The translations under genes and the position numbers were made by a program. 64,000 nt of DNA from positions 52,133 to 116,132 of the forward strand of contig OY282360.1 in the NCBI GenBank assembly GCA_958295675.1. The letters run 5' to 3'. Below are positions 7,222 to 47,961 of the stretch, piece by piece. This DNA comes from Minisyncoccota bacterium (GTDB lineage Bacteria > Patescibacteriota > Minisyncoccia > Phycocordibacterales > JABAAK01). Positions within the stretch are counted from its first letter, which is position 1; the number at the start of each line of letters is the position of its first letter. The notes beneath the pieces were generated by a model. It did not search any database. It was not told the DNA's origin and saw only the letters and a list, made by a program, of their open reading frames with translations.

Positions 7222-7533
7222 ATGATCAAACACGACATAGTCGGCTACCGTACCGAGGGTGGGGATATTGGGGCGGCGCGCCTTCTGGACATTTCTCGCG
7301 GATCAGTCGGAGAAGTCCAGCGGCTTGTCAAGAAATTGCCCGAAAACCGAGTCATCCTCATTATTGGCAATCCGGAGATGTTCGCCGATGTGGCAGCGAC
7401 AAAGGGCTGGCAATTGGGTGTTAGGTGTGACAGCAATAATCCACAGCAGTGGAGGTTTCGGGTTACAAACCACAACACCTTCTCAATATTTGTTGACAGC
7501 AGGTTGGTGACATTGTTCCCCACCGCCTGTTGA
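7222..7533 (+). CDS. Hypothetical protein (GC content visibly higher than neighbours)
   Basis: 103 aa ORF with AGGAGG 7 nt upstream of ATG and a stem-loop/T-run terminator right after the stop; no recognisable domain. Confidence 0.5.
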   Translation: MIKHDIVGYRTEGGDIGAARLLDISRGSVGEVQRLVKKLPENRVILIIGNPEMFADVAATKGWQLGVRCDSNNPQQWRFRVTNHNTFSIFVDSRLVTLFPTAC

Positions 7534-7537
7534 ACGC

Positions 7538-7570
7538 AAAGGACACCCTTTTGGGTGTCCTTATTTTTTT
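7538..7570 (+). terminator. Rho-independent terminator (GGACACCC-tttt-GGGTGTCC + T9)
   Basis: Perfect 8-bp GC-rich stem, 4-nt loop, followed by TTATTTTTTT. Confidence 0.6.
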
Positions 7571-7579
7571 GCACAACAC

Positions 7580-30690: not shown

Positions 30691-30696
30691 AAATCG

Positions 30697-31206
30697 TTAT
30701 CGGGGGCGGATAAGGAATTTTCTTGAAGTAACGCATAAATCAACAAAATCGTCAGCAGTCTCCTGTAGTCGCTGCGAGCAGGTTTTACCGAACGCGATCA
30801 CCTCCACCTGACAGCCGAACTTTTTCACATACTCAAGCGCCGGTACAAAATCACCATCACCGGAAACCAATGCAATCACATCAAGTTTGGGCGCCAGCCC
30901 AATCATGTCAATCGCCAATCCGACATCCCAATCGGCTTTCTTTGCATTATCACTGAATATTTGTAAATCTTTGCTTCTTGTTTCAATACCCATATTTACT
31001 AACGCCTCAAGAAACCCGGTTTCCTCCCCGCTCTCAGTGCGGATAACATACGCGATAGCGCGTATAAGGGTGCGGTCGGATACGATTGTTTTCACAACCG
31101 ACTCAAAATTAACCCGCGAATCATAAAGATTTTTCGCGCTGTGATATAAATTTTGAACATCAAGAAAAACACCGACCCGCTGGTTTGGGTGCTTAATAAC
31201 TGTCAT
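30697..31206 (-). CDS. NYN-domain (LabA-like, PIN-like) ribonuclease-family protein
   Basis: GVFLDVQNLY … SGDGDF motifs of NYN/LabA fold; start taken at ATG 31206. Confidence 0.7.
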   Translation of the reverse strand: MTVIKHPNQRVGVFLDVQNLYHSAKNLYDSRVNFESVVKTIVSDRTLIRAIAYVIRTESGEETGFLEALVNMGIETRSKDLQIFSDNAKKADWDVGLAIDMIGLAPKLDVIALVSGDGDFVPALEYVKKFGCQVEVIAFGKTCSQRLQETADDFVDLCVTSRKFLIRPR

Positions 31207-31332
31207 ATATTTTAGAAAAGTAACATGAATAATGTGCAATTACTGACCTGCGCAGAGTGCGGTTGATACGCTCACACACCTTTGAAAAAATGTGCGCAAT
31301 AGGTGTGGAAATATACTTAAAAAACAATATGA

Positions 31333-31599
31333 TTACCTTCGCAGACCGAGTGTTTTGATGGTGTTCTCGTATATACCGTTACTCTTTCTTTTCAAATAAG
31401 AAAGGTGCTTACGCCGTCGCTCAACCAAACCGACCAATCCTCTGCGGGAATGCCTGTCTTTGTGATTATTTTTGAGATGATCACTCAATTTTTTGATACG
31501 CGCCGTCAGTATTGAAATCTGCACAGCGGAAGAGCCCGTGTCTGTATCACGAGTCCGTACCGCTGCTGCACTTGCTTGTTTTTCCTCTTTCGTAAGCAC
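31333..31599 (-). CDS. rpsO: 30S ribosomal protein S15
   Basis: 88 aa; …LTARIKKLSDHLKNNHKDRHSRRGLVGLVERRRKHLSYL…; likely GTG start at 31599. Confidence 0.85.
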   Translation of the reverse strand: MLTKEEKQASAAAVRTRDTDTGSSAVQISILTARIKKLSDHLKNNHKDRHSRRGLVGLVERRRKHLSYLKRKSNGIYENTIKTLGLRR

Positions 31600-31689
31600 A
31601 ATGCCAGTATATATGGGTGGTAAGGAATATGCAATAACACAAAACCTGTGCATCACACTGATGTGCAGAATGCATACTACAATATATAT

Positions 31690-32550
31690 ATGGAATTTTC
31701 CAAAGCAAAGCGGCAATTTCTGGAACATGTTGAGCTTGGGTTGGGGCGGTCAATTAAGACGGTTGAGAATTATGATCGCTATCTCACCACATTTGCCTCA
31801 ATAATGAAAGTAACAGACACAAACCAAATCACTGAGTCATTTATCCATACCTTCCGTCTCACACTAAACAGACGGGGGAATATGAAGAAAACGACGCAGA
31901 ATTACTATCTCATCGCACTACGGATGTTTCTTCGCCATTTGGAAAGCAACGGAGAACAATGTTTGTCGCCGACCGCGGTGGTGCTGGCGAAGACCGGCAT
32001 GCGGGATATTGATCTGATAACCGCGGATGAACTGAAACGCCTGTTTCAAACTGTATCCGGAGACACAACACAGGACATTCGTGATAGGGCAATTTTGGAG
32101 ACATTGTTTTCAACAGGGCTGCGCGTATCGGAATTGGTGTCGCTCACCCGCGACATTGATCTCTCCGCAAAAGAAGTGGTTGTGCGCGGCAAGGGTGAAA
32201 AGGTGCGCGTGGTTTTTTTCTCAGATTCGGCGGTGCGGGCTATACAAGCATACCAAAAGAAGAGAAAAGATATGTCCAGCGCGCTTTTTGCCGGTAGGAG
32301 CGATGCACAACTCACCGTTCGGTCTATTGAACGCATTGTCACTAAGCGCGCGCGCGAGGCGGGTATTACCAAAAAGGTAACACCGCATGTTCTGCGCCAC
32401 ATGTTCGCCACCACTCTGCTTGCGAACGGCGCGGATTTGCGCGCGGTGCAGGAAATGCTCGGGCATGCGCACATAGCGACAACGCAGGTCTATACACACA
32501 TCACAAATAAGCGGTTGAAAGATATTCATAAAAATTTTCACGGGTTGTAA
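31690..32550 (+). CDS. Tyrosine site-specific recombinase, XerC/XerD-like
   Basis: 287 aa from ATG 31690; catalytic region HVLRHMFATTLL … LGHAHIATTQVYTH (R-H-R-Y signature). Confidence 0.85.
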   Translation: MEFSKAKRQFLEHVELGLGRSIKTVENYDRYLTTFASIMKVTDTNQITESFIHTFRLTLNRRGNMKKTTQNYYLIALRMFLRHLESNGEQCLSPTAVVLAKTGMRDIDLITADELKRLFQTVSGDTTQDIRDRAILETLFSTGLRVSELVSLTRDIDLSAKEVVVRGKGEKVRVVFFSDSAVRAIQAYQKKRKDMSSALFAGRSDAQLTVRSIERIVTKRAREAGITKKVTPHVLRHMFATTLLANGADLRAVQEMLGHAHIATTQVYTHITNKRLKDIHKNFHGL

Positions 32551-32570
32551 GCGATGTATACTGACGGTGT

Positions 32571-33290
32571 ATGCGTCCTAAAACAGGCAATGGTTTTACA
32601 CTTATTGAACTGCTCATTGTGATTGCAATTCTCGGCATTTTGGTTGGTGTGGTTGTCGTCGCACTGTCCGGCAGTGGGACTGACACGGCAAGAATTAGTA
32701 ATACCATTCAGAATGCCGGTCGGGTGGAAATCTTCACCAAGCAACTGCATACACTCGGCTATGACGGCAATGCCATAGCGGCACGGATAAACAGTAATCC
32801 TGACTTTGCGACCTTCACAACAGCGGAAAAGGTGATAGGATCATACGGTTACATAATCAACTCGCTGGGCGGGAAAACATGCAATAGTGGTGTGGATAGT
32901 AGTGTGGGGGGTGGCAATAAAGAAGAAGTATATGAATTTTTGGAACATTTGGTGGGTGCATCGGCAGTGTTGGAGCATCATCCTGGTGGGACACTTCTGC
33001 AGAATGCCGAAATAAGCGTAATATGCTCGGCAGTTCGATCTGACTCAAGGCGTCTTTTCCTTATCGCTGTGAAAGTGGTTGACGACATTTGGTGGTGCTC
33101 GTCAAATTTTATATTCAACAAGTCTCATACACCGAGCGAAAAAAAATATCATAGTGGATTTTGGAATGGTTTCTATAGAACGGCACCATCAGGCAAGATA
33201 AATAAAGCATGTCACAATGCCAAAACACCTAGTAAGGACTCCACACTATTTGACGGCAGGCCGATACGGGACCACCAATCAAACTATTGA
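32571..33290 (+). CDS. Type IV pilin / pseudopilin with class III (prepilin peptidase) signal
   Basis: N-terminus MRPKTGNGFTLIELLIVIAILGIL: G|FTLIE cleavage/N-methylation motif followed by hydrophobic helix; 239 aa. Confidence 0.8.
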   Translation: MRPKTGNGFTLIELLIVIAILGILVGVVVVALSGSGTDTARISNTIQNAGRVEIFTKQLHTLGYDGNAIAARINSNPDFATFTTAEKVIGSYGYIINSLGGKTCNSGVDSSVGGGNKEEVYEFLEHLVGASAVLEHHPGGTLLQNAEISVICSAVRSDSRRLFLIAVKVVDDIWWCSSNFIFNKSHTPSEKKYHSGFWNGFYRTAPSGKINKACHNAKTPSKDSTLFDGRPIRDHQSNY

Positions 33291-33325
33291 ACACTGTGTT
33301 GCCGCAAATGCTACACTGCCTATAT

Positions 33326-34120
33326 ATGAAAATATATTCATGGAATGTAAACGGACTTCGGGCGGTACACAACAAAGGCGCACTGGACTCGTTCATAAAA
33401 AAAGAAAACCCTGACATTCTGCTGTTGCAGGAGATAAAAGTGAAGGAGGAGCAATTGAGCGATGCACTTACCGATGATTCTTTCATTCGCTGCTACAACC
33501 CTGCGGACAAAGCGGGATACTCAGGTGTCGCCATTTGGGTGCATCCGCGTAACAAAAAGATATTCAAGGAATTTTCAAAAGGTATGCCGCGCTGGAAAGA
33601 CGGTGAAGGACGGGTGGCGCAGTGTTCGTTGACAAACAAGACAGTCATTCTCTCCGTCTATGTACCGAACGGCGGCAAATCAGATGATGCGTATAAGGAT
33701 AAACTGCTGTTTTTCAACCTGCTCGCATCATACGCAAAAAAACTCCAGAAAGAGGGGCACAAGGTTATCATCGGCGGCGATTTTAATGTCGCGCGCAGCG
33801 AATTAGATCTTGCCGAGCCGGAAAAATTCAGAAACCATACCCACTTCAATGATGAGGTGCGGGCACACATGGAAAAACTCACAGCAGCCGGTCTTGTGGA
33901 TACCTACCGGACACGCAATCCGGACAAAGAAGGTGCGTACAGTTACTGGGACAACTTCAGTTTTTCACTTCCTCGCGGCACAAAACCCCGTGATGTAAAC
34001 AAGGGCTGGCGTCTTGACTACTTATTGGTTGATCCGTCTACAGACAAAAACATCAAAGAAGTTTCTATACACCAAAACATCTTCGGGTCGGATCACTGCC
34101 CTGTTTCAGTGCACCTATAG
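33326..34120 (+). CDS. xth: Exodeoxyribonuclease III (AP endonuclease, EEP family)
   Basis: MKIYSWNVNGLRA start motif, LLLQEIK, final SDHCPV; true ATG at 33326 (track ORF begins at an upstream TTG). Confidence 0.9.
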   Translation: MKIYSWNVNGLRAVHNKGALDSFIKKENPDILLLQEIKVKEEQLSDALTDDSFIRCYNPADKAGYSGVAIWVHPRNKKIFKEFSKGMPRWKDGEGRVAQCSLTNKTVILSVYVPNGGKSDDAYKDKLLFFNLLASYAKKLQKEGHKVIIGGDFNVARSELDLAEPEKFRNHTHFNDEVRAHMEKLTAAGLVDTYRTRNPDKEGAYSYWDNFSFSLPRGTKPRDVNKGWRLDYLLVDPSTDKNIKEVSIHQNIFGSDHCPVSVHL

Positions 34121-34126
34121 CGAACA

Positions 34127-35620
34127 TCACCGAACACCGTGTTTTTTGCGTATACTCATAATTTCTTCCTGTTCTTCCTCCATACGCCGCACCTTCCCTT
34201 TTTCACCAAGTGCCGCAAGTTTCTCGTCAGGCATTTGTGATAATTCCTTTGCGCGAACGAACAGCACCTCCTTCTCATTTTTTGTTGGATCTTCAAGCAC
34301 TTCGGCAAGCAGTGTATGCAGCATATAACCGATACGAGGTCCCGGTTTCATATCCAATTCCTTCATAAGCATGCTTCCGTCTATTACCAGTGTGCCGGGG
34401 GTAATCGGTTCTCGCAGCACTTCCTCCACCATTGCTGTGTACTTGCGCAGACGGTACGGCTGTTCTTTCGGACGACCGGTACCGATACGGTCGCACATAC
34501 GCAGATCAATCAAATCCCAAATATTTTGCGCGCCAACTCGTGCCACCATCCGCCGGACACCCGCCGCTGTAACTTGTTCTGTGTCCGAAAAAAACATGTG
34601 CCATCGCACCAGAAGTGATGCCATATCAACAATATCCTTTGAAAATCTCATACGCCGCAGAATCTTCCTCGCAACGCGCGCGCCGACAACTTCATGCGTG
34701 TAGAATGTCCAGTCCTGTTTCTCATTTGACCATTCGCGCGTTTCCGGTTTACTAATGTCGTGCAGCAGTGCGGCAAGCCGCAACTCAAGCGACAGCTCTT
34801 TCACCCGAGCGTGCTCAAGAGTGCGGACATTATGCTCAAACACATCGTACTTATGCGCCTGATTCTGTTCAATGGACACTCCGCGCAAAAGTTCAGGAAT
34901 AATATGCCGCATCAGTCCGATTTCTTTAAGCAGAAAAATACCCTCAGCGGGCTTGTCTGCCATTAGAATTTTCACAAATTCATCCCGCACCCGTTCCACA
35001 GCAATGACAGCGAGCGAATCAGCGTGTTTCCGTATCGCTTCTCCGGTTTTTTCTTCAATAGAGCCGTTTAGCTGGGTGGCAATGCGCACCGCCCGCATCA
35101 TGCGCAGCGCATCTTCATTAAACCGTTCTTCAGGGTTGCCGACTGCGCGTATGTGTCCGTTGTGCAGATCGGCAATCCCGTTGTGCAAATCAACCAATTC
35201 CTTAGTAATCGGGTTGTACGCCAATGCGTTTATAGTAAAATCCCGCCGCGACAAATCCTCTTCCAAAGAAACACCGAACATCACCGCATCCGGCCGTCTA
35301 TTGTCGCTATACCCTGTCTCCTTTCTGTACGGCGTCACCTCTATGAGATTTTGAGCAGGATCTTTAATATCGTCAAACACCACACCAACTGTGCCGTAAT
35401 CATTCTCATAAACAGTGTGATCAAACAAATCCTGTATCTGCTCGGGTGTCGCATTAGTGGTGAAGTCCCAGTCAGCAACCGGATACTTCATAATCATGCC
35501 GCGAACACATCCGCCGATAATGTACGCATCAAAACCGGCATTGTGCAGCGTTTCAGCGACGGAAAGCACATGCTTCGGAACATCAAGATCAACAATATTT
35601 TTTGTTTCTTGTTTTGCCAT
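34127..35620 (-). CDS. cca: tRNA nucleotidyltransferase (CCA-adding)/poly(A) polymerase family with HD domain
   Basis: GGCVRGMIM…DWDF pol-beta nucleotidyltransferase head; HD-domain in C-terminal half. Confidence 0.85.
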   Translation of the reverse strand: MAKQETKNIVDLDVPKHVLSVAETLHNAGFDAYIIGGCVRGMIMKYPVADWDFTTNATPEQIQDLFDHTVYENDYGTVGVVFDDIKDPAQNLIEVTPYRKETGYSDNRRPDAVMFGVSLEEDLSRRDFTINALAYNPITKELVDLHNGIADLHNGHIRAVGNPEERFNEDALRMMRAVRIATQLNGSIEEKTGEAIRKHADSLAVIAVERVRDEFVKILMADKPAEGIFLLKEIGLMRHIIPELLRGVSIEQNQAHKYDVFEHNVRTLEHARVKELSLELRLAALLHDISKPETREWSNEKQDWTFYTHEVVGARVARKILRRMRFSKDIVDMASLLVRWHMFFSDTEQVTAAGVRRMVARVGAQNIWDLIDLRMCDRIGTGRPKEQPYRLRKYTAMVEEVLREPITPGTLVIDGSMLMKELDMKPGPRIGYMLHTLLAEVLEDPTKNEKEVLFVRAKELSQMPDEKLAALGEKGKVRRMEEEQEEIMSIRKKHGVR

Positions 35621-35680
35621 ATATACAGTATATAGTTATTTGTCCGTGAACTGTAAAAACTGCTACACTGTGTGCTACAT

Positions 35681-35754
35681 GCGCCCGTAGCTCAGCTGGA
35701 CAGAGCGCCCGGCTTCGGACCGGGAGGTCGTGGGTTCAAATCCTACCGGGCGTG
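35681..35754 (+). tRNA. tRNA-Arg (anticodon TCG)
   Basis: Manual cloverleaf: acceptor GCGCCCG/CGGGCGT, D arm GCTC…GAGC, anticodon stem CCCGG/CCGGG with loop CTTCGGA, T arm GTGGG-TTCAAAT-CCTAC; 74 nt, no encoded CCA. Confidence 0.8.
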
Positions 35755-35798
35755 CTGAACACAAAAAACAATATACGAAAGCGTGATACAGTACCAGT

Positions 35799-37484
35799 AT
35801 GCAGAGCAAGCGCATAGGAGAAAAAGAGTTTAGTGCGGCACCATATTGGGCAGATGCCGTCGCCGATATCCTCATCGCTGCGCATCCGGACAAAAAAACA
35901 TTTGTCTGCGCCGCGGGCATTAGTCCCTCCGGATCGGTTCATTTCGGTAATTTCAGGGAAATTGTCACTTCATTCGCGGTCGCACAGGCACTCAAAGATA
36001 AAGGAAAAAAAGCGGAGTTAATATTTTCATGGGACAATTTTGACCGATTCAGAAAGGTGCCGGCAGGTATTCCAAAGGAATACGAGCAATATGTCGGCAA
36101 GCCGCTTTCAGGTATTCCATCCGCAAATAATACAAATGAATCGTATGCCGAAGTATACCAGAAAGAATTTCAGGATGCGATGAAAGAATTTGCAATCTCG
36201 ATTATTTATAAAGATCAAACAAAACTTTACACAGCAGGCACCTATGACCGCCACATTATTACCGCGATACAGAAACGAAAAGAGATAGCGGACATTCTGC
36301 TCGCGCACATGACGGATAAAGGAAAGGAACTGAAAGGTATCAGCGACCGTGAATACCGGGAATCCTACTACCCAATATCGGTATATTCGCGGTTTACAGG
36401 CAAGGATGCGACAGAGATTCTCTCATGTGACAATACAACTATCCGCTATCGCTGTAAAATCACAAAGGAGGAGGAGGAGATAGATTTCACACAAACACAT
36501 ATTGTGAAACTGAATTGGAAAATAGATTGGGCGATGCGCTGGATGCACGAGGATGTGTGTTTTGAGCCGGCAGGCAGCGATCACGCCGCGCCAAATGGCA
36601 GCTATGATGTTTCATCAGAAGTAGCGAGAAAGATATTCAACACAGAGCCGCCAATGTTCACCGAGTTCGGCTTCGTCGGACTGCGCGGTCTCGGCACCAA
36701 AATGTCCGGATCGTCGGGAAAAAATATCACACCGGCAATACTTCTCACCATCTACGAACCGGCACTACTGCTGTGGATGTATCTCCGTCGTCTTCCGAAA
36801 CAAACCTTTTCCCTCGCATTTGACACTGAAGTGTATAGGCAATACGATGAAATGGATAAAATATTTCGCATGCCGAAAGCAAATCGGTTAAAACATCTAT
36901 TAAAAATAAAAAAAGCGAATATCAACCGAACAGACGGCGCGGAAAAACGGGTAGCAGAAATGCTGAAAAAAATACACAGTATCAGCAGAAACCCAATTCC
37001 TTTCCGCCAGTTGGTGGGACTTGCACAAATTATTCAATGGGATGAAGCCAAACTCGGCAAACTGCTTGTGGCATCAGGACAATCGTTTGATTCTGAGACA
37101 ATCCGCGCCCGCTTACCGAAAGCGAAAACATGGGTTACTGAATATAACACGGATGCACTTGTCACTCTTCGGACTGAGGTAAACACAGAAGCATGGAAAG
37201 AGATAGATGAAGAAAACAGAGAATACATTCGTCAGCTTGGGGAATATATACAGCAGTACGGAACCGGCAATATACAAGAAACAGAGAAATTTCTCTACAA
37301 TCTTCCCAAAGTGCAGTACACAAATGAAAACGATTTAAAAAAAGCGCAACGAACCTTATTCAAACATATATATCGTCTTCTGATCGGTAAGGATGCCGGT
37401 CCGCGGCTCAGCACATTCCTTTGGTCTGTATCCGCAAAACAATTACTGCACCTTTTTTCATTTAATCAGGTGGAGGAACTTTAA
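35799..37484 (+). CDS. lysK: Lysine--tRNA ligase, class I (archaeal-type LysK)
   Basis: HIGH-type motif SGSVHFGNFRE, WDNFDRFRKVP (matches class I LysRS), KMSGS (KMSKS). Confidence 0.8.
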   Translation: MQSKRIGEKEFSAAPYWADAVADILIAAHPDKKTFVCAAGISPSGSVHFGNFREIVTSFAVAQALKDKGKKAELIFSWDNFDRFRKVPAGIPKEYEQYVGKPLSGIPSANNTNESYAEVYQKEFQDAMKEFAISIIYKDQTKLYTAGTYDRHIITAIQKRKEIADILLAHMTDKGKELKGISDREYRESYYPISVYSRFTGKDATEILSCDNTTIRYRCKITKEEEEIDFTQTHIVKLNWKIDWAMRWMHEDVCFEPAGSDHAAPNGSYDVSSEVARKIFNTEPPMFTEFGFVGLRGLGTKMSGSSGKNITPAILLTIYEPALLLWMYLRRLPKQTFSLAFDTEVYRQYDEMDKIFRMPKANRLKHLLKIKKANINRTDGAEKRVAEMLKKIHSISRNPIPFRQLVGLAQIIQWDEAKLGKLLVASGQSFDSETIRARLPKAKTWVTEYNTDALVTLRTEVNTEAWKEIDEENREYIRQLGEYIQQYGTGNIQETEKFLYNLPKVQYTNENDLKKAQRTLFKHIYRLLIGKDAGPRLSTFLWSVSAKQLLHLFSFNQVEEL

Positions 37485-37504
37485 AAAATGTATTCCATTG
37501 CCGG

Positions 37505-38473
37505 CTATTCTTTCAAATGTTTTTCAACAATTGAAACAACTTGATCAACACTAAGTTGTGAATCAACACCCTGCGGACTACCTCCGATAGTCGGCGATCC
37601 TCCCCACCCCGGCTCTAATTCATTGAGTTCCATAAGTGCTGCTTTAATATCTGCAAACTTCTTTTCAAAAGTGCAGACAGTGAACTTCTTGTATGGATCT
37701 TTTCCGTGCTGTTTGAAGGAGGGATTCAACGCAACAACAACCGGAGCGAGAGAATATCCGACAGTTGTTCCGGCTCGGTGTGTACTCTCCACAAATGCAA
37801 TTCTGCCGTCCGCTCTGGTTTCATAAGTAATATCACCATTTTCCAGCGCCTTTACCATATCCAATTTTTCTTCATGCACCTGCTTGCGGTATATTTCTGA
37901 TTCATTGCCGGTTTTTAACCACTCTTTCATTGATGCAACACGATCGGCAAGCGGTACCTTGAAGTCTGATATTTCCGCAGCAATCGCAGCAAGCACTTCT
38001 TCATTCTGATTATTCCATAATGTTTCTTGTGTGGGCAGCGGTTTCGGTCCGAGGTACCCTCCTTGTGCGAATTTATCAGAATCAGCAATGATTTTTACTC
38101 GTTCCATCGCTGCGTCATCAAGGACTCCGTCTTCAGATCGAATTGTAAATACAGCCATTGCGCCAACCGAATCAAGGTCAGCACGAACAGTGGCGAATAA
38201 GGCATCTTGAGGTGGGGTTTCAAATATAACAGCTTCCTCAATGGCGGCTGTGTCAGAATCCCCACCTGTGTGTTGGGGATCAATATTCACAACACAACGC
38301 TCCGCAAGTTCCGGTACAGTGACCTCAATACCGTATACATTATTACTTTCAAACACTTGATCATTATGCTCCCTTGCAGCCGGTATTGGTCTGGGGTCAA
38401 GTACTGCAAACGAATAAAAAGATGGTTTTTCCCGTTGCTCTTTATTTCCAAAATTATCAAATTTATTTTCCAT
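37505..38473 (-). CDS. Hypothetical protein (no recognisable domain; GC higher than the adjacent cassette)
   Basis: ~323 aa from MENKFDNF; acidic; ends at the left edge of the AT-rich cassette. Confidence 0.5.
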   Translation of the reverse strand: MENKFDNFGNKEQREKPSFYSFAVLDPRPIPAAREHNDQVFESNNVYGIEVTVPELAERCVVNIDPQHTGGDSDTAAIEEAVIFETPPQDALFATVRADLDSVGAMAVFTIRSEDGVLDDAAMERVKIIADSDKFAQGGYLGPKPLPTQETLWNNQNEEVLAAIAAEISDFKVPLADRVASMKEWLKTGNESEIYRKQVHEEKLDMVKALENGDITYETRADGRIAFVESTHRAGTTVGYSLAPVVVALNPSFKQHGKDPYKKFTVCTFEKKFADIKAALMELNELEPGWGGSPTIGGSPQGVDSQLSVDQVVSIVEKHLKE

Positions 38474-38599
38474 ATATACATCATAATAACACGCAAAACT
38501 CAAGACAGAATATATAAAAAACAATAAATGGATTTCTATAGATATCCAGGGTGCCGTTCAGGCGATTATGCTCGAACTATAGCACGAAAGTTGAAAGAG

Positions 38600-38760
38600 T
38601 ATTTTGAGAACAACACGCGCGCTCAGTAAGCACGAGAACTAGTCGCTCCGCCCTCCCGTGCCAATCACCGCTGTTATTTTCTTTTTCCATTCAATCCGTC
38701 CACTCCGTTTTTCCCACTCTGTCCTTTTGCTCCGCAAAAGTTCGAATCTGGAAATGCTTT
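38600..38760. repeat. Left copy of a ~130-nt imperfect inverted repeat flanking the AT-rich cassette
   Basis: CGCGCTCAGTAAGCACGAGAACTAGTCGCTCCGC…CTCCCGTGCCAATCACCGCTGTTATTTTCTTTTTCC is the reverse complement (roughly 80-85% by eye) of 43895-44025. Confidence 0.6.
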
Positions 38761-38776
38761 ATTATCTGTAGTATAA

Positions 38777-39691
38777 TTAGGCATCATCAAGATTATATTG
38801 TTTTAGTAATTCAACTCTCCAGTTAATAACTAGATTATTAAAAATCTCTACGCAATATTTTGTTAAAACCGTTTCTTCTAATAGAAATAAATTTGTATCA
38901 TAACACCTTTGTGTACGCGAATACTTATAATCTAATATACATTCCTCTTCCTCTCTTCTGATGTCTCCAATTTCAAATATAGATAATACACTAATAAAAT
39001 AATCTGTTAGAACAGTTTCTCCAAGAGGTTCAGACATGCTTAATCCAAGGTTTGGATTTCCAAATGGAGCTTGTGTTGGCATTATCTTATTCTTGTTCGT
39101 TTTTTGAATAAAATAATACCTTTCTACCCTAAAATTTATAAAAGAAAAAACTGTTTTTAATATCTGTTCATCAGTCATACTTTTTTTAAAAAAACTCTTT
39201 TTTGCCGCCATTTCTGATTGTACAAGAGTATTTAATTGTTCATTGAGTGTTTTAAATACTGATTCCTTAACAGACTTTTTCTCTTTCCGCTTTTTACACA
39301 AATTTTCTATGGTCATGTCATTCATAAAAACTTGCAACGCAAGGCTTTCAAAATAAATTAACAATCTTTGTTCTCTATCAGAGTATTTAAATTTAGTATT
39401 TTTAGGAGCTCGCATATCTTTTAGCATCTTATTGTGAAATTCCTTTATCTTTGCAGCGGAATTGCTTAATGAAATTGCGTGAGCACGTGAAATATGCATG
39501 AGAATAATTGCAAAATCATTTAAAGAAATACTTCCTTCCTCTTTTGCAGAATTCATTGTTTTTTTGAGAAAGTGGAAATTCTTTCTTGTCCCTTCAAGAT
39601 CAAACTTCACTCTAATTAATTTTTTTCGCCAATCTTTGAGCAAGTCAGCGCATTTTAACTCTGTTTTGTTTATGTTATCTCTTGTCTTCAT
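38777..39691 (-). CDS. Hypothetical protein of AT-rich cassette (possible abortive-infection/defense accessory)
   Basis: 304 aa, K-rich helical, no motif recognised; markedly lower GC than the chromosome backbone. Confidence 0.55.
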   Translation of the reverse strand: MKTRDNINKTELKCADLLKDWRKKLIRVKFDLEGTRKNFHFLKKTMNSAKEEGSISLNDFAIILMHISRAHAISLSNSAAKIKEFHNKMLKDMRAPKNTKFKYSDREQRLLIYFESLALQVFMNDMTIENLCKKRKEKKSVKESVFKTLNEQLNTLVQSEMAAKKSFFKKSMTDEQILKTVFSFINFRVERYYFIQKTNKNKIMPTQAPFGNPNLGLSMSEPLGETVLTDYFISVLSIFEIGDIRREEEECILDYKYSRTQRCYDTNLFLLEETVLTKYCVEIFNNLVINWRVELLKQYNLDDA

Positions 39692-39785
39692 AACTGAAAG
39701 GAAATTGCAGATACATAAAATATACCATATCTATTCTTTCGCACTGGGTCAGCGCCTACGATACCTCTAAGAAAAAGAAATTATA

Positions 39786-41258
39786 TCATGATGCTACAGA
39801 AGCTGACACTTTCTTTCTTGCGTCAATCAAAACAATATTTTCATCTTTTTCTAGACCAATCTCTTCTAGAATTTTAATAACTCTTTCATATTCACTTTTC
39901 TCAAAAAATAATATAACTGTAAAACCATTAAATGTTCTGTTTGCTCTTTTGTATATTTCTACCTGTTTTTGTAAATTTTGCTTTAATTTTTTATTTTTTG
40001 CAAGTTTAAATTCAACCAATGTCTTGTCTCTCTTGCTCGAGATAGTAAAATCAACTGAACCTCGACCATTATTCACCTCACGGTTTACATCAAAATCAGA
40101 ATTGTAACATGTCAAATGGAATAATAGTTGAAGATCTCTTTCATTGCTGATACATCCATCTTCACGATAGAAAAGCTTATATCCGTCCATGTTTTCTATA
40201 AAATCTTTCAGAATAAGAATCCTTTTCTTTGCCTCATGATAACTTCTCACTGGCTTATAAAAACCAAGGTTTTGTAATCGCCCAATCAGAGATTGTGCAT
40301 TTTCTACAAAGAAGGTATCAGAATAATCAACCTTTTGTTGACTGATATTTATTGCTTGGTCACCATTTTCTTCCTTATATTTTATGTAGTAATCAAAGAG
40401 CTCCGGAAACCTAATGAAAGTTGATCGTATCGCTGTATTCCTTTCTTCCTTTTTCATCTCCCTATTTCCTCTTTCGTACTGTTTTATACGATTTTTATAG
40501 TAATTATTTATTTGATGGCGTAGTTGAGCATTATCAATAGTACTTGGTATTTCTGTAAAATCTTCAATCAGACCTTTTCTATTAATCCATACATCATCTT
40601 TGGTCAATATATCTACTGGCGTTAAAATGACATAGTCATTTTCAAATTTTGGCAAGATAAAATTTTTTTCTGCCCACACTTCCGTATCATAGTTAAAATA
40701 AGATTTCTTGACCCTGAAAGTTCTCGTTAGTCTTTTGTCAATGTATCGTTTTGTAAATTTTTGGGTGTATTCAAGTAAAAAATGCTTGATTAAATTGGTA
40801 ACAAAATCACTTATATTATCCCTACCAACGCCATCCTTAACCAAGCACAATTTTTCTAAATGCGCCCCTCTCGTTATATTTTCTTCACCAAAATTTTGAA
40901 AAACAGTATTTAAATTTCCGTGCAGAGCTTCTGCAAATTTCATTCCGAGTGCGTGTCCTTTGTTTCCGATCACAGAATAACCAAGCCAGTTTTGCTGAAC
41001 CTCACTGAACATATACCATGACTTCATTTTGCCAACATCTACTTCTTCAGAAGATTTGTCTTTCACGAAAATTAAATATTTGATTATTTCATTGTGTAAT
41101 TTTTGATATTCTTCCTTTTCGCTATTAAAAAGAAGGAAAGGATCAATAAAAAGAGGTAAATCAGTAATAAGGGATATATTAAATGCTCCATATTCTTTGA
41201 GATCGTCTTTTTTTACATTAAAATAGTCTGAAAAGTGGGGTTTCACATGCTTGTGCAT
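39786..41258 (-). CDS. Hypothetical protein with C-terminal PD-(D/E)xK-like nuclease motif
   Basis: 490 aa; C-terminal …GRGSVDFTISSKRDKTLVEFKLAKN fits D…(D/E)xK spacing of restriction-endonuclease-like fold; N-terminal 380 aa unassigned. Confidence 0.5.
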   Translation of the reverse strand: MHKHVKPHFSDYFNVKKDDLKEYGAFNISLITDLPLFIDPFLLFNSEKEEYQKLHNEIIKYLIFVKDKSSEEVDVGKMKSWYMFSEVQQNWLGYSVIGNKGHALGMKFAEALHGNLNTVFQNFGEENITRGAHLEKLCLVKDGVGRDNISDFVTNLIKHFLLEYTQKFTKRYIDKRLTRTFRVKKSYFNYDTEVWAEKNFILPKFENDYVILTPVDILTKDDVWINRKGLIEDFTEIPSTIDNAQLRHQINNYYKNRIKQYERGNREMKKEERNTAIRSTFIRFPELFDYYIKYKEENGDQAINISQQKVDYSDTFFVENAQSLIGRLQNLGFYKPVRSYHEAKKRILILKDFIENMDGYKLFYREDGCISNERDLQLLFHLTCYNSDFDVNREVNNGRGSVDFTISSKRDKTLVEFKLAKNKKLKQNLQKQVEIYKRANRTFNGFTVILFFEKSEYERVIKILEEIGLEKDENIVLIDARKKVSASVAS

Positions 41259-41444
41259 ATGATATTATTATATCAAAACTGTCCTGTCAGGGCTTATTTC
41301 TCTTGCTTGTGATTGATTCAGGATTTTCTTCTGAATATATAAGGTTTGAAATACATAGTTCATTTTCTTTTTTCTTCATATCAACATTCTTCATTGCCCT
41401 GTTGTATCCTGTATGTTAGGCATTGAGGAGCCATCTTTTTCATT

Positions 41445-42536
41445 TTATTTTCCTGATTTAGTGCGGTTATCTTTTTTGCATAACATCTGGCAATTTTTTG
41501 CAATTGTTTTACCACCTTCATGCCAAGGGGTAATATGGTCAGCCTCCATCTCTTGAATCTCAAACCGTTTTTCGCATTTTGCGCAGATACCCTTTTGCCT
41601 CTCATACGCTTCTCGCTTCATGTTCTCGGTAAAGGTACGAATAGAAAGATGTTTTTCCTCTCTCGTTAAGACATAGGGGTAAATGCCAGATTTTTTAGTC
41701 ACATCTTCGTCTTGCATTAATTCAGTAATCTCAGTCTCTAGTTTTTTAGCATTCAGGTTTTGAGTATTGAATTGGTTATACAGTTCACCCCAATGTACAC
41801 TCGCCATCTCATTGCGGTAATTGGTAAAAGTCTTTCGCACCCAAGCAACCACCCTTTGAAAGTATTCCCATAATTCATCAGCATTTTTATCGTGCTGATG
41901 TTTTGCCATGTACTCTTCTATTTCTCCGTTATTGATCCAGGAAAGTGCAGTCTCTAGATAGTCCTGTCTTATCGGCGAACCCTTCAGAAGTGATCCATCA
42001 TCATTCGCCAAAAGGTATGCTGCACAACCTGTTTTGCTAAATTTTAGCTTTGCGTCAGAGAGCCACGGTCCGGTGTAGACCGCATTTCGTATTTCCTGGT
42101 CAGTTAATTCTGCACCGGCAATATTAATAATCCTAAACCAATCAAGCCGCTCTTTATCTGTGCCTTCGCAGAAGTAAATCATTAGTTCATAATTTAAAAT
42201 CTGGTCTTGTTCCTCGCCAGTTAAATTATGAAAATAGTGATTATTCAATGAAAAGTCACCGTTTATATATTGTCCTATACTTATAGTTCGTTGTTGACCG
42301 TCCAGCATTTCATAATTTCCACCTTCTTTTACCATCCAGTACATAACATTGAGTGGAAAACCATTTTTAATTGTTTCAATTACGGCATCACGCTGTTTGC
42401 CGGTATAGACAAACTCTCTTTGGTATTTAGGACGAATGTCTAATCTACCACCATAGGCGGTAACACCTTCCTCATCACTGTCTTTGTATTTCTCAACCAC
42501 ATCACGAACCAAAATCTTGTGTAATTCAATTTTCAT
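41445..42536 (-). CDS. DUF262 (ParB-like, DGQQR motif) + C-terminal HNH nuclease protein
   Basis: MLDGQQRTISIGQY (DGQQR signature) in N-terminal half; C-terminal CAKCEKRF…ADHITPWHEGGKT…NCQMLCKKDN = HNH (Cys4 + His-Asn-His); start overlaps MTase stop. Confidence 0.75.
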   Translation of the reverse strand: MKIELHKILVRDVVEKYKDSDEEGVTAYGGRLDIRPKYQREFVYTGKQRDAVIETIKNGFPLNVMYWMVKEGGNYEMLDGQQRTISIGQYINGDFSLNNHYFHNLTGEEQDQILNYELMIYFCEGTDKERLDWFRIINIAGAELTDQEIRNAVYTGPWLSDAKLKFSKTGCAAYLLANDDGSLLKGSPIRQDYLETALSWINNGEIEEYMAKHQHDKNADELWEYFQRVVAWVRKTFTNYRNEMASVHWGELYNQFNTQNLNAKKLETEITELMQDEDVTKKSGIYPYVLTREEKHLSIRTFTENMKREAYERQKGICAKCEKRFEIQEMEADHITPWHEGGKTIAKNCQMLCKKDNRTKSGK

Positions 42537-42537
42537 G

Positions 42538-43566
42538 TTATTTTTTTGCTTTTTTATTTCTTATTAATATTCTGAAGTATGTATACTTTCCATCTATCGA
42601 TAAATCCTTATCATCATCACCTTTTCTAAACTTTACTATCTCAAACTGGTCAGGATTATATTTGTCAAGGAATGTGATTGGGACACCTATAACACCATCA
42701 TAATTATAAGGTATATCGGTATATTTATCTACATTAATTGCATTATAATTATCATATTTTGGATATTCTTCCGGTGTGTATTTTTTATAAAGTACGATAT
42801 CGTTTTTGTGTTTTGTAACTTCAAGATTTGTAAACCAACATGAAGTTGCTACACGAGCAATCTTCTTGCCATTTTCATCAATATGGTGAAATTTTTCCCA
42901 ATCGTCTGGTACAACAAAAAACATTCCTACATTAAAATTAGTATAACCAGTTCGAATTTTATTTTCCTTGAAAAATTTAAAAATCTCTTTATATGTAATT
43001 GCATTTGTATTACCAATAATCAAGAATTCTTTATCAAGTTCTGTTAATTGTGTAACATACTCACGAAATAATGAAAATGGAGGGTTAGTAACCACCACAT
43101 CCGCTTGTTTGAGTAAATTGACACATTCTTCACTACGAAAATCACCATCACCTTCAAGAGGTTTTGCAACATTAGCATCTTGTCTCAGTAATTGCTCAAC
43201 GTCTTCCAAATTGACTGCACCATCATTATTAAGATCTTTAACTTCATTAATTTCAATTCTAAATGGCTCCTTTCCTTCAGGTTTTAATCCCTCTATTTCA
43301 ACGAGTGGCAACTGCCCACCAGCAATTGGTGACCTTATATAACTTGTGGCAATAAGTTTTTTAAGTTTCAGTGCGTTAAAATTAGCGGCAAAATACTTAA
43401 AAAAGTTACTTTCATAAGGATCATCGCAGTTACAGTACACAACCTTATCATGAAATTGTTCTTTGTAATGTCTTAACTCTTTCTCAATATCAACAAGTTG
43501 AGTATAAAACTCATCTTTTTTTGCTTTAGATGCCTGATGAAGAGCTGTATTTGAAGATTTAGCCAT
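42538..43566 (-). CDS. DNA methyltransferase (amino-methyltransferase, NPPF motif IV; N6A or N4C)
   Basis: DEFYTQ near N-terminus and VVVTNPPFS catalytic motif; 342 aa; translationally coupled to the DUF262-HNH gene. Confidence 0.8.
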   Translation of the reverse strand: MAKSSNTALHQASKAKKDEFYTQLVDIEKELRHYKEQFHDKVVYCNCDDPYESNFFKYFAANFNALKLKKLIATSYIRSPIAGGQLPLVEIEGLKPEGKEPFRIEINEVKDLNNDGAVNLEDVEQLLRQDANVAKPLEGDGDFRSEECVNLLKQADVVVTNPPFSLFREYVTQLTELDKEFLIIGNTNAITYKEIFKFFKENKIRTGYTNFNVGMFFVVPDDWEKFHHIDENGKKIARVATSCWFTNLEVTKHKNDIVLYKKYTPEEYPKYDNYNAINVDKYTDIPYNYDGVIGVPITFLDKYNPDQFEIVKFRKGDDDKDLSIDGKYTYFRILIRNKKAKK

Positions 43567-43894
43567 AACAATTTCTTATACTTAAAGTATGCCATCTAAT
43601 TTTTATGATAATCCAACAGAAGAAATTCCAGCAAAAACAAATTATCCACCCATTTTTCTTATAACGACAGTGTGTATTCTCATAATAGGAAATCCGTCCG
43701 TGAAAACCCTATCGGGAGGTTCACTGGCGGATTACTAGTTTTCCTCTCCTTCGCCAACGCCGAACATTTTCTTTTGCAGTTTTGATACGTGCCGTTAAGG
43801 CATAGAAAGGTTCTAGTGATACATATTGATGACCCACCTGCTCTCCGTACCGAATCCGCGGCGAGCACGCGGAGTTGGGGCGGTGGAAGAATAG

Positions 43895-44025
43895 AAAAAG
43901 AAAATAACGGCGGTGATTGGCACGGGAGCGGAGCGAACGGAGGGGTCTTGTCGCAGGCATGTCCCCGCAACGATGCGGAGCGACTAGTTTTCATGTTTAC
44001 TGAGCGCGAATGTGTGTCATCTTGT
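43895..44025. repeat. Right copy of the imperfect inverted repeat (contains a 46-nt insertion relative to the left copy)
   Basis: GAAAAAGAAAATAACGGCGGTGATTGGCACGGGAG…CGGAGCGACTAGTT…TACTGAGCGCG matches the reverse complement of 38600-38700. Confidence 0.6.
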
Positions 44026-44034
44026 ATCCTTGGG

Positions 44035-44105
44035 TGCGGGCGGGGAGAATCGAACTCCCGTTTTCCGCTTGGAAGGCGGATGTTCTACCACTAAACTACG
44101 CCCGC
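44035..44105 (-). tRNA. tRNA-Gly (anticodon TCC)
   Basis: Cloverleaf on minus strand: acceptor GCGGGCG/CGCCCGC, anticodon stem TCCGC/GCGGA, loop CTTCCAA, T arm GGGAG-TTCGATT-CTCCC; 71 nt. Confidence 0.85.
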
Positions 44106-44792: not shown

Positions 44793-44858
44793 CTCACGCC
44801 CCCTGGTGTGTCCGTGCTTTATTACTACCCTCTTCACGGACACACCAGGGGGCGTGAG
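44793..44858. repeat. Perfect 24-bp inverted repeat hairpin (18-nt loop) immediately 3' of tRNA-Pro(CGG)
   Basis: CTCACGCCCCCTGGTGTGTCCGTG …18 nt… CACGGACACACCAGGGGGCGTGAG; no mismatches. Confidence 0.7.
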
Positions 44859-46764: not shown

Positions 46765-47172
46765 TTATACCCAGAAAATTTCTATACTCGGATACAAACG
46801 ATCGTGCGGCAAGATAACACCAATAACACCTAATGCAACACCAGTATATTTCGGATGACTATTTAAATAATAGTTGCCAAATTGTGACATTCGTTGTATT
46901 TTCTTTTTTGTAATTCGGTCTGATAGACAAAAATCAAAATCAATTATATTATCAACATTTTGTGTGTTTCTATGTGAAACATTAGAAGATGTTTCACGTG
47001 AAACACTCTTAACTTCAAATATATAAAGCACCTGATTCTTTTTTGCAATAATATCCACTTCTATAAATTTAGCTTTGTATTGCATGGCTATTATTGTATA
47101 TCCACAACTTTTCAAATACTTTTCCGCATATTTTTCCCCAGTATTTCCAATAAATTTCTGAAGTGTAAACAT
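46765..47172 (-). CDS. YraN/UPF0102-family predicted endonuclease (PD-(D/E)xK fold)
   Basis: GEKYAEKYLKSCGYTII…FIEVDIIAKKNQVLYIFEVKS matches the YraN signature; contains a perfect parS 16-mer in its coding sequence (46990-47005). Confidence 0.7.
   Translation of the reverse strand: MFTLQKFIGNTGEKYAEKYLKSCGYTIIAMQYKAKFIEVDIIAKKNQVLYIFEVKSVSRETSSNVSHRNTQNVDNIIDFDFCLSDRITKKKIQRMSQFGNYYLNSHPKYTGVALGVIGVILPHDRLYPSIEIFWV
46990..47005. promoter_or_regulatory. parS consensus site (TGTTTCACGTGAAACA) inside the YraN-like gene
   Basis: Perfect match to the 16-bp palindromic chromosomal ParB/Spo0J binding consensus. Confidence 0.7.
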
Positions 47173-47196
47173 AGTTCTCTACAATTTATATACCAT

Positions 47197-47858
47197 TGTT
47201 TCACGTGAAACATGTACAAATACACATATTTCACACACAAGTGTTTCACGTGAAACAGTTTCCTTGTGAAACGATTTACGTAAAATAAGGATATTTTTGC
47301 ACAAAGATGTTTCACGTGAAACATGCAGAGCCGTTAAACACACACAAGTGTTTCACGTGAAACAGTTTCCTTGTGAAACGATTTACGTAAAATAAGGATA
47401 TTTTTGCACAAAGATGTTTCACGTGAAACATGCAGAGCCGTTAAACACACACAAGTGTTTCACGTGAAACAGTTTCCTTGTGAAACGATTTACGTAAAAT
47501 AAGGATATTTTTGCACAAAGATGTTTCACGTGAAACATGCAGAGCCGTTAAACACACACAAGTGTTTCACGTGAAACAGTTTCCTTGTGAAACGATTTAC
47601 GTAAAATAAGGATATTTTTGCACAAAGATGTTTCACGTGAAACATGCAGAGCCGTTAAACACACACAAGTGTTTCACGTGAAACAGTTTCCTTGTGAAAC
47701 GATTTACGTAAAATAAGGATATTTTTGCACAAAGATGTTTCACGTGAAACATGCAGAGCCGTTAAACACACACAAGTGTTTCACGTGAAACAGTTTCCTT
47801 GTGAAACGATTTACGTAAAATAAGGATATTTTTGCACAAAGATGTTTCACGTGAAACA
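47197..47858. repeat. Tandem array of 13 perfect parS sites: six identical 107-bp direct repeats, two parS each, plus one flanking copy
   Basis: TGTTTCACGTGAAACA found at 47197, 47242, 47308, 47349, 47415, 47456, 47522, 47563, 47629, 47670, 47736, 47777, 47843; 107-bp period verified by coordinates; each unit also carries a GTGAAACG half site. Confidence 0.85.
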
Positions 47859-47961
47859 TGTTTCACAAGGTAACACTTACAAGGTGTTTATAGCATTATA
47901 GTAGATACTTGTATAGAATCCTATTTTATTAATAAAAAGAATGGGACAGATATATTATTTC

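Follow-up and report, generated by a model that had tools for sequence, protein, structure and literature searches.

What are the long inverted repeats that bracket a low-GC (33%) four-gene defence cassette in a Patescibacteria (CPR) genome, and how did they come to stand there? The cassette lies in a window of 64,000 nucleotides (64 kb), the whole stretch of DNA that was analysed, and all positions refer to it. An earlier note had described imperfect inverted repeats of ~130 nt at the two cassette ends and suggested that they could be inverted duplicated promoter or 5'UTR segments, a family of small RNA genes, or recombination sites of an uncharacterised element. We found the repeats at these ends, but the part shared by the two arms is ~80 nt long and only the right arm reaches ~125 nt. 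The arms and the short repeats within them are arranged as follows.

38613-38692, + strand: left arm, consisting of block A (38613-38651), CC and block B (38653-38692), without the 45-nt middle segment
43889-44013, - strand: right arm, the complete unit, consisting of block A (44013-43975), the middle '46-nt' segment (43974-43929) and block B (43928-43889)
43983-43975 and 43936-43928, - strand: 9-nt direct repeats TCGCTCCGC that bracket the segment missing from the left arm (the BLAST alignment starts at 43936)

Block A (ACAC/TG/TCGCGCTCAGTAA...AACTAGTCGCTCCGC; 39 nt) is 87% identical between the arms, with 31/34 matches in its core, and block B (CTCCCGTGCCAATCACCGCYGTTATTTTCTTTTTCYATTC; 40 nt) is 95% identical (38/40). 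Together the arms are ~91% identical over 79 nt, and all five substitutions within the block cores (5/5) are transitions. Between the blocks, the right arm carries 47 nt where the left arm has 2 nt, a net difference of 45 nt. The similarity is well beyond chance: a 35-nt core occurs exactly twice in the window and 0 times in 100 dinucleotide shuffles, and the arm-versus-arm BLAST alignments have E-values of 1e-14 and 4e-8. A two-arm profile searched against the window with nhmmer recovered both arms and no third copy; its E-values of 6e-43 and 4e-23 are circular, since the profile was built from the same two arms. The similarity ends sharply on both sides, and neither the inner nor the outer flanks align better than shuffles. 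Both arms have a GC content of 54%, whereas the cassette genes have 33% and the window as a whole 43%, so the repeat core is indeed GC-richer than the cassette, as had been noted. It had also been remarked that the arms are too long for typical IS ends, and we agree that they are not ordinary IS ends. By inspection of the sequence, neither arm carries inverted repeats at its own two ends.

Between and beside the arms lie the following genes.

37505-38470, - strand: conserved CPR protein of 322 aa with a DHH/DHHA1-type phosphoesterase fold, whose upstream region abuts the left arm
38777-39691, - strand: orphan gene of 304 aa at the left cassette edge, no family match above threshold
39786-41258, - strand: candidate defence protein of 490 aa, PDC-M36A-like (PADLOC 1.8e-21; weak DpnII-MboI nuclease match)
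41445-42536, - strand: Type II restriction endonuclease with GmrSD_N/DUF262 and HNH domains (Pfam; PADLOC REase_II 1.3e-132)
42538-43566, - strand: Type II N6-adenine methyltransferase of the EcoRI family (Pfam PF13651 1.7e-133; PADLOC MTase_II 4e-123)
44033-44105, - strand: tRNA-Gly(TCC), right border of the variable slot, 98.6% identical to 7500-7571 of the related locus L130

The right arm starts 20 nt downstream of the tRNA-Gly(TCC) 3' end. Pfam and PADLOC searches revealed no transposase or integrase within the cassette. The sole match of the 304-aa protein among 5.8 billion clusters is itself, and the 490-aa protein has no other member in its 90%-identity cluster and no viral relatives. 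The methylase/restriction pair moves independently of the arms: it is found in other CPR contigs as a two-gene module with 73-81% DNA identity, the homology is confined to 41446-43560, and those contigs have no arms. On the other side of the left arm, the 322-aa protein has 576 homologues, of which the best 120 are 54-70% identical to it. Its AF2 model has a pLDDT of 89, and the best Foldseek matches in the PDB are PAP phosphatase, GdpP and RecJ2. This neighbour was considered as a hidden recombinase, which is ruled out by its predicted DHH/DHHA1 phosphoesterase fold.

Comparison with L130, a syntenic relative with the same flanks on both sides, provided the polarity of the repeat. Two further features of the region emerge from it.

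38652-44032, no strand: variable slot, holding here the defence cassette, block B and the right arm, and in L130 a multicopper oxidase and DUF411 (synteny map)
37400-38632, no strand: tract of near-identity to L130, 92-100% in most 60-nt windows with a dip to 0.82-0.85 near 38180-38270 (sliding identity)

The region between the 322-aa gene and tRNA-Gly is a slot with exchangeable cargo. The slot content of L130 is unrelated to ours, and no L130 border sequences were found relocated within the window. L130 carries a single copy of block A and the '46-nt' segment, at the position and in the orientation of the left arm; block B is absent from it, no further copy lies beside its tRNA-Gly, and its cargo is not bracketed by an inverted repeat. 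Right-arm block A and the middle segment align to L130 9856-9776 with 86% identity over 81 nt, and L130 keeps the middle segment flanked at both ends by shorter GCTCCGC repeats. Since block A and the middle segment occur once in L130, at the left-arm site, they are native border DNA. What the earlier note took for a 46-nt insertion in the right copy is therefore ancestral sequence, and it is the left arm that lost a net 45 nt, with the TCGCTCCGC repeats as the likely slippage or microhomology deletion points. Beyond its outer end, the left arm continues unbroken into DNA upstream of the 322-aa gene, where identity to L130 is 100%. Of the two arms, the left is the original and the right its younger, inverted duplicate. 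Within the 22-nt tail of block A, the arms differ from each other at 3 positions and each differs from L130 at 6, suggesting that the duplication, or the last conversion between the arms, post-dates the split from L130. L130 is the only informative outgroup and also carries cargo, so block A and the middle segment could be the vestige of an older element end common to both lineages.

The locus is recombination-prone. The near-identity tract ends inside left-arm block A, and the LysRS beside it is only ~70% identical to L130; judged by these identities, 37400-38632 looks like a recent recombination tract. In a strain that is 97-98% identical, the contig breaks at positions corresponding to 37243 and 44088 of the window. 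A methylase at least 90% identical to the one described here is encoded on a 6,081-bp ENA contig, which may supply the stretch that this strain lacks.

These observations are best explained, we think with moderate confidence, by an inverted duplication, specific to this lineage, of ~125 nt of native intergenic DNA, left as a scar at a recombination hotspot. The same segment stands inverted at both ends of the region and one copy is contiguous with the ancestral flank, which is the mark of duplication-with-inversion. The original unit, composed of block A, the 46-nt segment and block B, would have been located at the left border of the slot beside the 322-aa gene. A copy would have been placed in reverse 20 nt downstream of tRNA-Gly(TCC), giving the right arm, and the left arm, still contiguous with its conserved flank, would later have lost 45 nt by slippage between the TCGCTCCGC repeats. 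The inverted duplication and the left-arm deletion are evident from the comparison with L130, and an inversion may have accompanied the duplication. The cassette may have been flipped or installed by duplication associated with inversion or by a staggered-break inversion, a model of how inversions arise. If so, a native copy, an inverted copy at the opposite breakpoint, sharp ends and the lack of a target-site duplication are the expected layout. The duplicated unit spans both the conserved border (block A and the 46-nt segment) and the slot-specific block B, suggesting that a single copying event took it up whole, once the slot had acquired its present content. At present the arms probably serve no sequence-specific function, although their 34-40-nt homologies could permit rare re-inversion of the RecA type.

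The full repeat unit has only two copies in the 64-kb window, which covers part of a 724-kb genome, and none was found in 46 kb from two relatives (L130-L132), where L130 holds only its block A and middle segment, in ten less related loci (L120-L129), or by exact-pattern scans of JGI metagenomes and IMG/VR. A 17-mer, CCCGTGCCAATCACCGC, occurs at at least 119 loci in a genome collection; these are chance matches in GC-rich genomes, and 0 among the matches listed carry the longer repeat. Within the DNA covered here, the search for further copies that the earlier note had recommended yielded none. One possible degenerate, partial third copy lies near the right arm.

43734-43776, + strand: R2, ACTAGTTTTCCTCTCCTTCGCCAACGCCGAACATTTTCTTTT, inverted relative to the right arm; the evidence for it is marginal

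Its local alignment beats 497-499 of 500 shuffles, nhmmer does not detect it, and in the predicted fold it pairs long-range with block B (z about -2). R2 contains one of only four ACTAGT sites in the window. If it is a copy, it is not accounted for by a single duplication event.

The duplicated DNA could instead be a functional cis element of the slot border, for instance an insulator or terminator, a regulatory region of the 322-aa gene or a small RNA, that was duplicated to both cassette ends. Its GC content is high for non-coding DNA, and block A with the middle segment is kept at 86% between the right arm and L130, lineages whose adjacent LysRS is ~70% identical, which hints at constraint and hence at a possible function. 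The sole terminator-like feature in the arms, a weak hairpin on the - strand of left-arm block A, lies upstream of the 322-aa gene, and the GC-rich region on the right, taken as a whole, has a slightly more stable fold than shuffles (z about -2). However, this hairpin is weakened in the right arm by the three block-A differences, and no hairpin precedes the T-rich end of block B. The RNA structure analysis that the earlier note called for gave a negative answer, as neither arm folds better than shuffled sequence on either strand (z -0.6 to +1.1). Rfam 15 covariance models, applied at the gathering threshold and at E<=5, matched only tRNAs and nothing in the arms even at E<=5, and we found no promoter-like or canonical terminator site in the arms in shared orientation. 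The left arm tolerated a 45-nt deletion, and the small ORFs across the arms are not conserved. On this balance, a functional cis element is unlikely. A 39-aa ORF that starts in the left arm on the - strand was rejected as a coding candidate: the right arm has ATA for its ATG, and 3/3 block-A differences fall at the first codon position and are non-synonymous. With only two copies in 64 kb, no Rfam match and arms that fold like shuffles, the proposal of a small RNA gene family is not sustained. That of an inverted duplicated promoter or 5'UTR was literally right about the inverted duplication, but the promoter part found no counterpart in the arms.

Mobility offers a different account of the arms, as the terminal inverted repeats of a non-autonomous, transposon-like defence unit mobilised in trans. 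Such a unit would sit just downstream of a tRNA gene, and tRNA genes are common targets for mobile DNA. The low-GC RM/defence cassette was acquired horizontally, contains no transposase and lies between long imperfect repeats (~91% over 79 nt), and block B is missing from L130. The arrangement resembles that of an RM unit in X. oryzae whose 65-bp repeats (60/65) likewise have no other copies in the genome (PMC2853133). The borders speak against it, because a target-site duplication is missing (near the ends, a single 7-mer matches directly, not adjacent to them and with ~0.25 expected by chance), because L130 has block A and the middle segment at the same site without the cassette, block B or the right arm, and because the outer end of the left arm passes unbroken into DNA 100% identical to L130. 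The arms (54% GC) are also unlike the cargo (33%), the methylase/restriction pair moves elsewhere without them, and the metagenome and viral collections scanned hold no copies. What we found is thus a pair of bracketing repeats without a mobility gene, with no target-site duplication and with part of the repeat present in the relative; a transposon-like unit appears improbable, and the presence of block A and the middle segment at the same place in a relative without the cassette or the second arm also weakens the suggestion that the arms are recombination sites of an uncharacterised element. Several more specific candidates were rejected. An IS element or MITE does not fit two copies in 64 kb with none in the relatives' loci, no transposase, and arm ends that are not mutual inverted repeats; an island made by a tRNA-targeting integrase would contain the integrase gene and repeat the tRNA 3' end directly at its far border, neither of which is seen; and the search for att-type direct repeats, or for a decayed tRNA outside the left arm, gave nothing but a 7-mer. 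The arms might also serve a programmed, switch-like inversion of the cassette, as they bracket a one-directional operon downstream of a tRNA gene. A gene for a Xer-type tyrosine recombinase is found ~6 kb away (31648-32550; its homologues in L130 and L132 carry Phage_integrase domains), and the assembly of the close strain breaks on both sides of the region. Yet the unit contains no recombinase gene and has none next to it. Known invertase sites are far shorter and less diverged than the arms, the 45-nt indel reveals an arm architecture free of constraint, and L130 has one arm only. Allelic replacement accounts better than a flip for the two assembly breaks, which both fall outside the arms, one of them ~1.4 kb to the left. 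We regard such a switch as very unlikely. The chance is remote that block A, the 46-nt segment and block B form the recognition site of a recombination system exchanging or flipping cargo beside tRNA-Gly in Patescibacteria, an integron- or shufflon-like platform without a recognisable integrase, in which repeated cycles would have produced the right arm and R2. Nothing points to a new RNA or mobile element; the inverted duplication that we favour is an event of an ordinary kind, and the arms open no new mechanism.

The locus provides a clean, dated CPR example of defence-island remodelling, with unrelated cargo in the same slot and a recombination tract ending at the border. It also cautions annotators that defence genes may be surrounded by long inverted repeats that are neither transposon ends nor RNA genes. 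As in the allelic substitution of RM and defence genes and in tRNA-adjacent islands, one slot holds unrelated cargo in related genomes (defence here, copper resistance in L130). In contrast to tRNA-adjacent islands, the locus has neither an integrase nor directly repeated copies of the tRNA 3' end, and the exchange of cargo appears to rely on flanking homology. The transposon-like RM units with long imperfect inverted repeats, such as the 65-bp repeats (60/65) in X. oryzae (Furuta, Abe and Kobayashi, 2010, NAR 38:2428; PMC2853133), share with this locus Type II RM genes that are bracketed by such repeats without a transposase, and their repeats too occur nowhere else. Those units, however, come with 8-bp target duplications, and the genome with the empty site lacks their repeats, whereas here there is no target duplication and half of the repeat is native, being present in a relative without the cassette. 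A third likeness is to DNA duplication associated with inversion in H. pylori (Furuta et al., 2011, PNAS, as cited in PMC3120642 and PMC4671568). As far as these citing papers describe it, a breakpoint segment reappears inverted at the other end with one copy in its native context, as also in the staggered-break model, and no target-site duplication or recombinase is involved, in a plastic, RM-rich region. Set against that description, the duplicated piece here is short (125 nt) and non-coding, the host belongs to the Patescibacteria, and the inversion of the intervening DNA is putative. The inverted duplication thus records a rearrangement, and it supports the view from H. pylori, as conveyed in the same papers, that RM-linked rearrangements create inverted duplications without transposases.

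An inverted repeat is present at both ends of the defence cassette, as the earlier note had observed. The features of the locus are as follows.

Features of the variable slot and its borders
37505-38470, minus strand: gene for a 322-aa protein, no Pfam match
38613-38692, plus strand: left arm of the inverted repeat
between the arms, minus strand: EcoRI-family adenine methylase (Pfam, 1.7e-133)
between the arms, minus strand: DUF262/GmrSD_N-HNH Type II restriction enzyme (PADLOC, 1.3e-132)
between the arms, minus strand: PDC-M36A-like candidate defence gene (1.8e-21)
between the arms, minus strand: 304-aa orphan gene (0 homologues among 5.8 billion protein clusters)
43889-44013, minus strand: right arm of the inverted repeat
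44033-44105, minus strand: tRNA-Gly(TCC)

The arms share a 39-nt block A (87% identity; 31/34 in its core) and a 40-nt block B (95% identity). The window contains exactly two occurrences of a 35-nt core, which 100 dinucleotide shuffles never produced. Searched with a profile of both arms, the window yielded only the arms themselves; the E-values are circular, and the informative part is the absence of a third copy. The similarity stops sharply, with alignments of the inner and the outer flanks that do not exceed those of shuffled sequence, so the shared part is ~80 nt. The previously estimated length of ~130 nt fits the right arm alone (~125 nt), in which 47 nt separate the blocks, against 2 nt in the left arm. 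This middle segment is flanked on both sides by the 9-nt direct repeat TCGCTCCGC. The arms are GC-richer (54%) than the four co-directional genes between them (33%), as claimed, and than the window (43%). The corrections to the original observation are minor.

The left arm lies ~140 nt upstream of the 322-aa gene, and the right arm begins 20 nt downstream of tRNA-Gly(TCC), on the same strand. After this tRNA gene the sequence reads CCC, with no encoded CCA; the gene belongs to a cluster of four (Gly, Pro, Pro, Gly), all on the minus strand. The 322-aa protein has 576 homologues, those listed being mostly from the candidate phyla radiation (CPR), with 54-70% identity across the best 120. Its predicted structure (pLDDT 89) resembles the DHH/DHHA1 phosphoesterases PAP phosphatase, GdpP and RecJ2, with a DPQH motif where DHH is expected, and a DHH/DHHA1 phosphoesterase fold is predicted with high confidence. 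A role as recombinase was rejected, as the model is that of a housekeeping-type enzyme. The gene also adjoins restriction-modification (RM) islands in two less related loci, L120 and L121. Homologues whose sources carry a name assign the genome to the Patescibacteria, and matches at 100% lie on a contig of 724,510 bp.

Comparison with L130, a 113-kb contig reached via cluster look-up, provided insights into the origin of the arms. Synteny between L130 and the window extends to either side of the slot: window 30004-38651 corresponds to L130 20956-9823, and on the right both share the order tRNA-Gly(TCC), tRNA-Pro, Imm_superinfect gene, second tRNA-Pro, tandem-repeat region, tRNA-Gly(GCC) and NusA. 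In L130 the slot from the 322-aa gene to tRNA-Gly(TCC) lacks the defence cassette and is occupied by a multicopper oxidase gene and a DUF411 gene, with no flanking inverted repeat. A single block A with the 46-nt segment after it (9856-9776) is placed and oriented as the left arm is, and runs on into the DNA upstream of the 322-aa gene; nothing arm-like lies next to the L130 tRNA-Gly, and block B is absent from the 21 kb searched. It follows that block A with the 46-nt segment is native border DNA of the slot rather than cassette-borne, and that the left arm is the original and the right arm derived from it. The extra 46 nt in the right copy, taken earlier for an insertion, are indeed there, but they are ancestral: a deletion between the direct repeats removed 45 nt from the left arm. 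Over the 22-position tail of block A, the arms differ from each other at 3 positions and each from L130 at 6, which places the duplication, or the last conversion between the arms, after the split from L130.

The locus stands out as a recombination hotspot. Over window 37400-38632, identity to L130 9823-11100 is 92-100% in most 60-nt windows, with one dip to 0.82-0.85, whereas LysRS identity is ~70% and the two genomes are otherwise ~70-80% identical. This 1.2-kb tract covers the LysRS end, takes in the 322-aa gene with the DNA upstream of it, and reaches 20 nt into block A; it looks like a recent inter-lineage recombination tract ending inside the left arm. In a strain 97-98% identical to the window, contigs (L131 and L132; ENA ERZ19488997 contig_3 and contig_6) end at window 37243 and resume at 44088. 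The missing 6.8-kb segment (322-aa gene, both arms, cassette), unassembled there, fits population-level variation at the locus.

Other repeats occur in the window. A tandem array of 107-nt period at 47125-47959 (plus 46981-47005 and 47197-47221), between a UPF0102-family gene and tRNA-Gly(GCC), has at least 6 copies, the central 4 being 100% identical; its unit contains two palindromes, AAGTGTTTCACGTGAAACAGTT and ATGTTTCACGTGAAACAT. Its length appears different in L131, and L130 matches fragments only. A GC-rich hairpin at 44793-44858, with a perfect 24-bp stem and an 18-nt loop, lies between a 97-aa ORF (plus) and tRNA-Pro(CGG) (minus); it has no BLAST match in L130 and resembles either a bidirectional terminator or a palindrome of recent origin. 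A 216-nt tandem repeat (19785-20296; ~2.4 copies, 89-96% identity) lies within a long ORF (18189-20690, minus).

The arms had been suggested to be duplicated promoter/5'UTR segments, small RNA genes, or recombination sites of a new element. The first reading is not supported: no promoter-like site was found in them. The lone terminator-like match, on the minus strand in block A of the left arm, is a weak hairpin, and the two copies do not share conserved ORFs across the arms. A small-RNA family is not supported either: no Rfam family matches the arms even at E<=5, neither arm has a better fold than its shuffles on plus or minus strand, and the window holds no third copy. Exact-pattern scans for blocks A and B gave 0 matches in JGI metagenomes and IMG/VR. 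Downstream of the tRNA, a GC-rich region of 343 nt has a slightly better fold than its shuffles (z ~-2) because block B pairs with R2 (43734-43776), a possible degenerate copy that beats 497-499 of 500 shuffles and was missed by nhmmer; its standing as a partial copy is marginal. The window has only 4 ACTAGT sites; R2 has one of them, and together with the arms it accounts for three. The palindromic hexamers AACGTT, GACGTC, CCTAGG, GCTAGC and TGGCCA are absent from the 64 kb, which together with the rarity of ACTAGT may reflect restriction-site avoidance. Recombination sites of a new element are unsupported, the border part of the repeat being native at the same place in L130; the cassette encodes no transposase, integrase or invertase. 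Close methylase homologues (73-81% DNA identity) occur on eight other CPR contigs in unrelated contexts, and in all eight the homology is limited to the methylase/restriction pair (41446-43560) and arm sequence is absent, so the RM pair is a two-gene module that is mobile without the repeats. A further methylase relative, P0260 (at least 90% identical), is on a separate 6,081-bp contig.

The duplicated unit spans both conserved border DNA (block A and the 46-nt segment) and slot-specific DNA (block B), so it was copied in one piece with the present slot content already there. A duplication associated with inversion would keep one copy in its native context and set an inverted copy against the opposite slot border, leaving sharp ends without target duplication or recombinase. 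The arms match this expectation, and no target-site duplication or tRNA-derived direct repeat was found flanking the unit. A staggered-break inversion would yield the same arrangement. We infer that the cassette itself may have been inverted; no L130 border sequences were found relocated within the window, and the L130 slot content is unrelated. Duplication associated with inversion has been described for H. pylori, in work cited by two papers (PMC3120642; PMC4671568), and the setting fits, as RM genes are known for an enrichment of flanking repeats and for links to inversions (PMC2853133). Among alternatives already described, the nearest is the transposon-like RM unit, which has long imperfect inverted repeats (65 bp, 60/65 identical) and an 8-bp target duplication (PMC2853133). 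It is less likely here because the arms depart from it in two defining traits: no target duplication flanks them, and part of the repeat is present in a relative without the unit. It may still apply, as the only outgroup also holds cargo in the slot. The most probable reading of the arms is a scar left by rearrangement where a defence/cargo slot adjoins a tRNA gene in a CPR genome, a fresh example, of modest significance, of an already known type of event.
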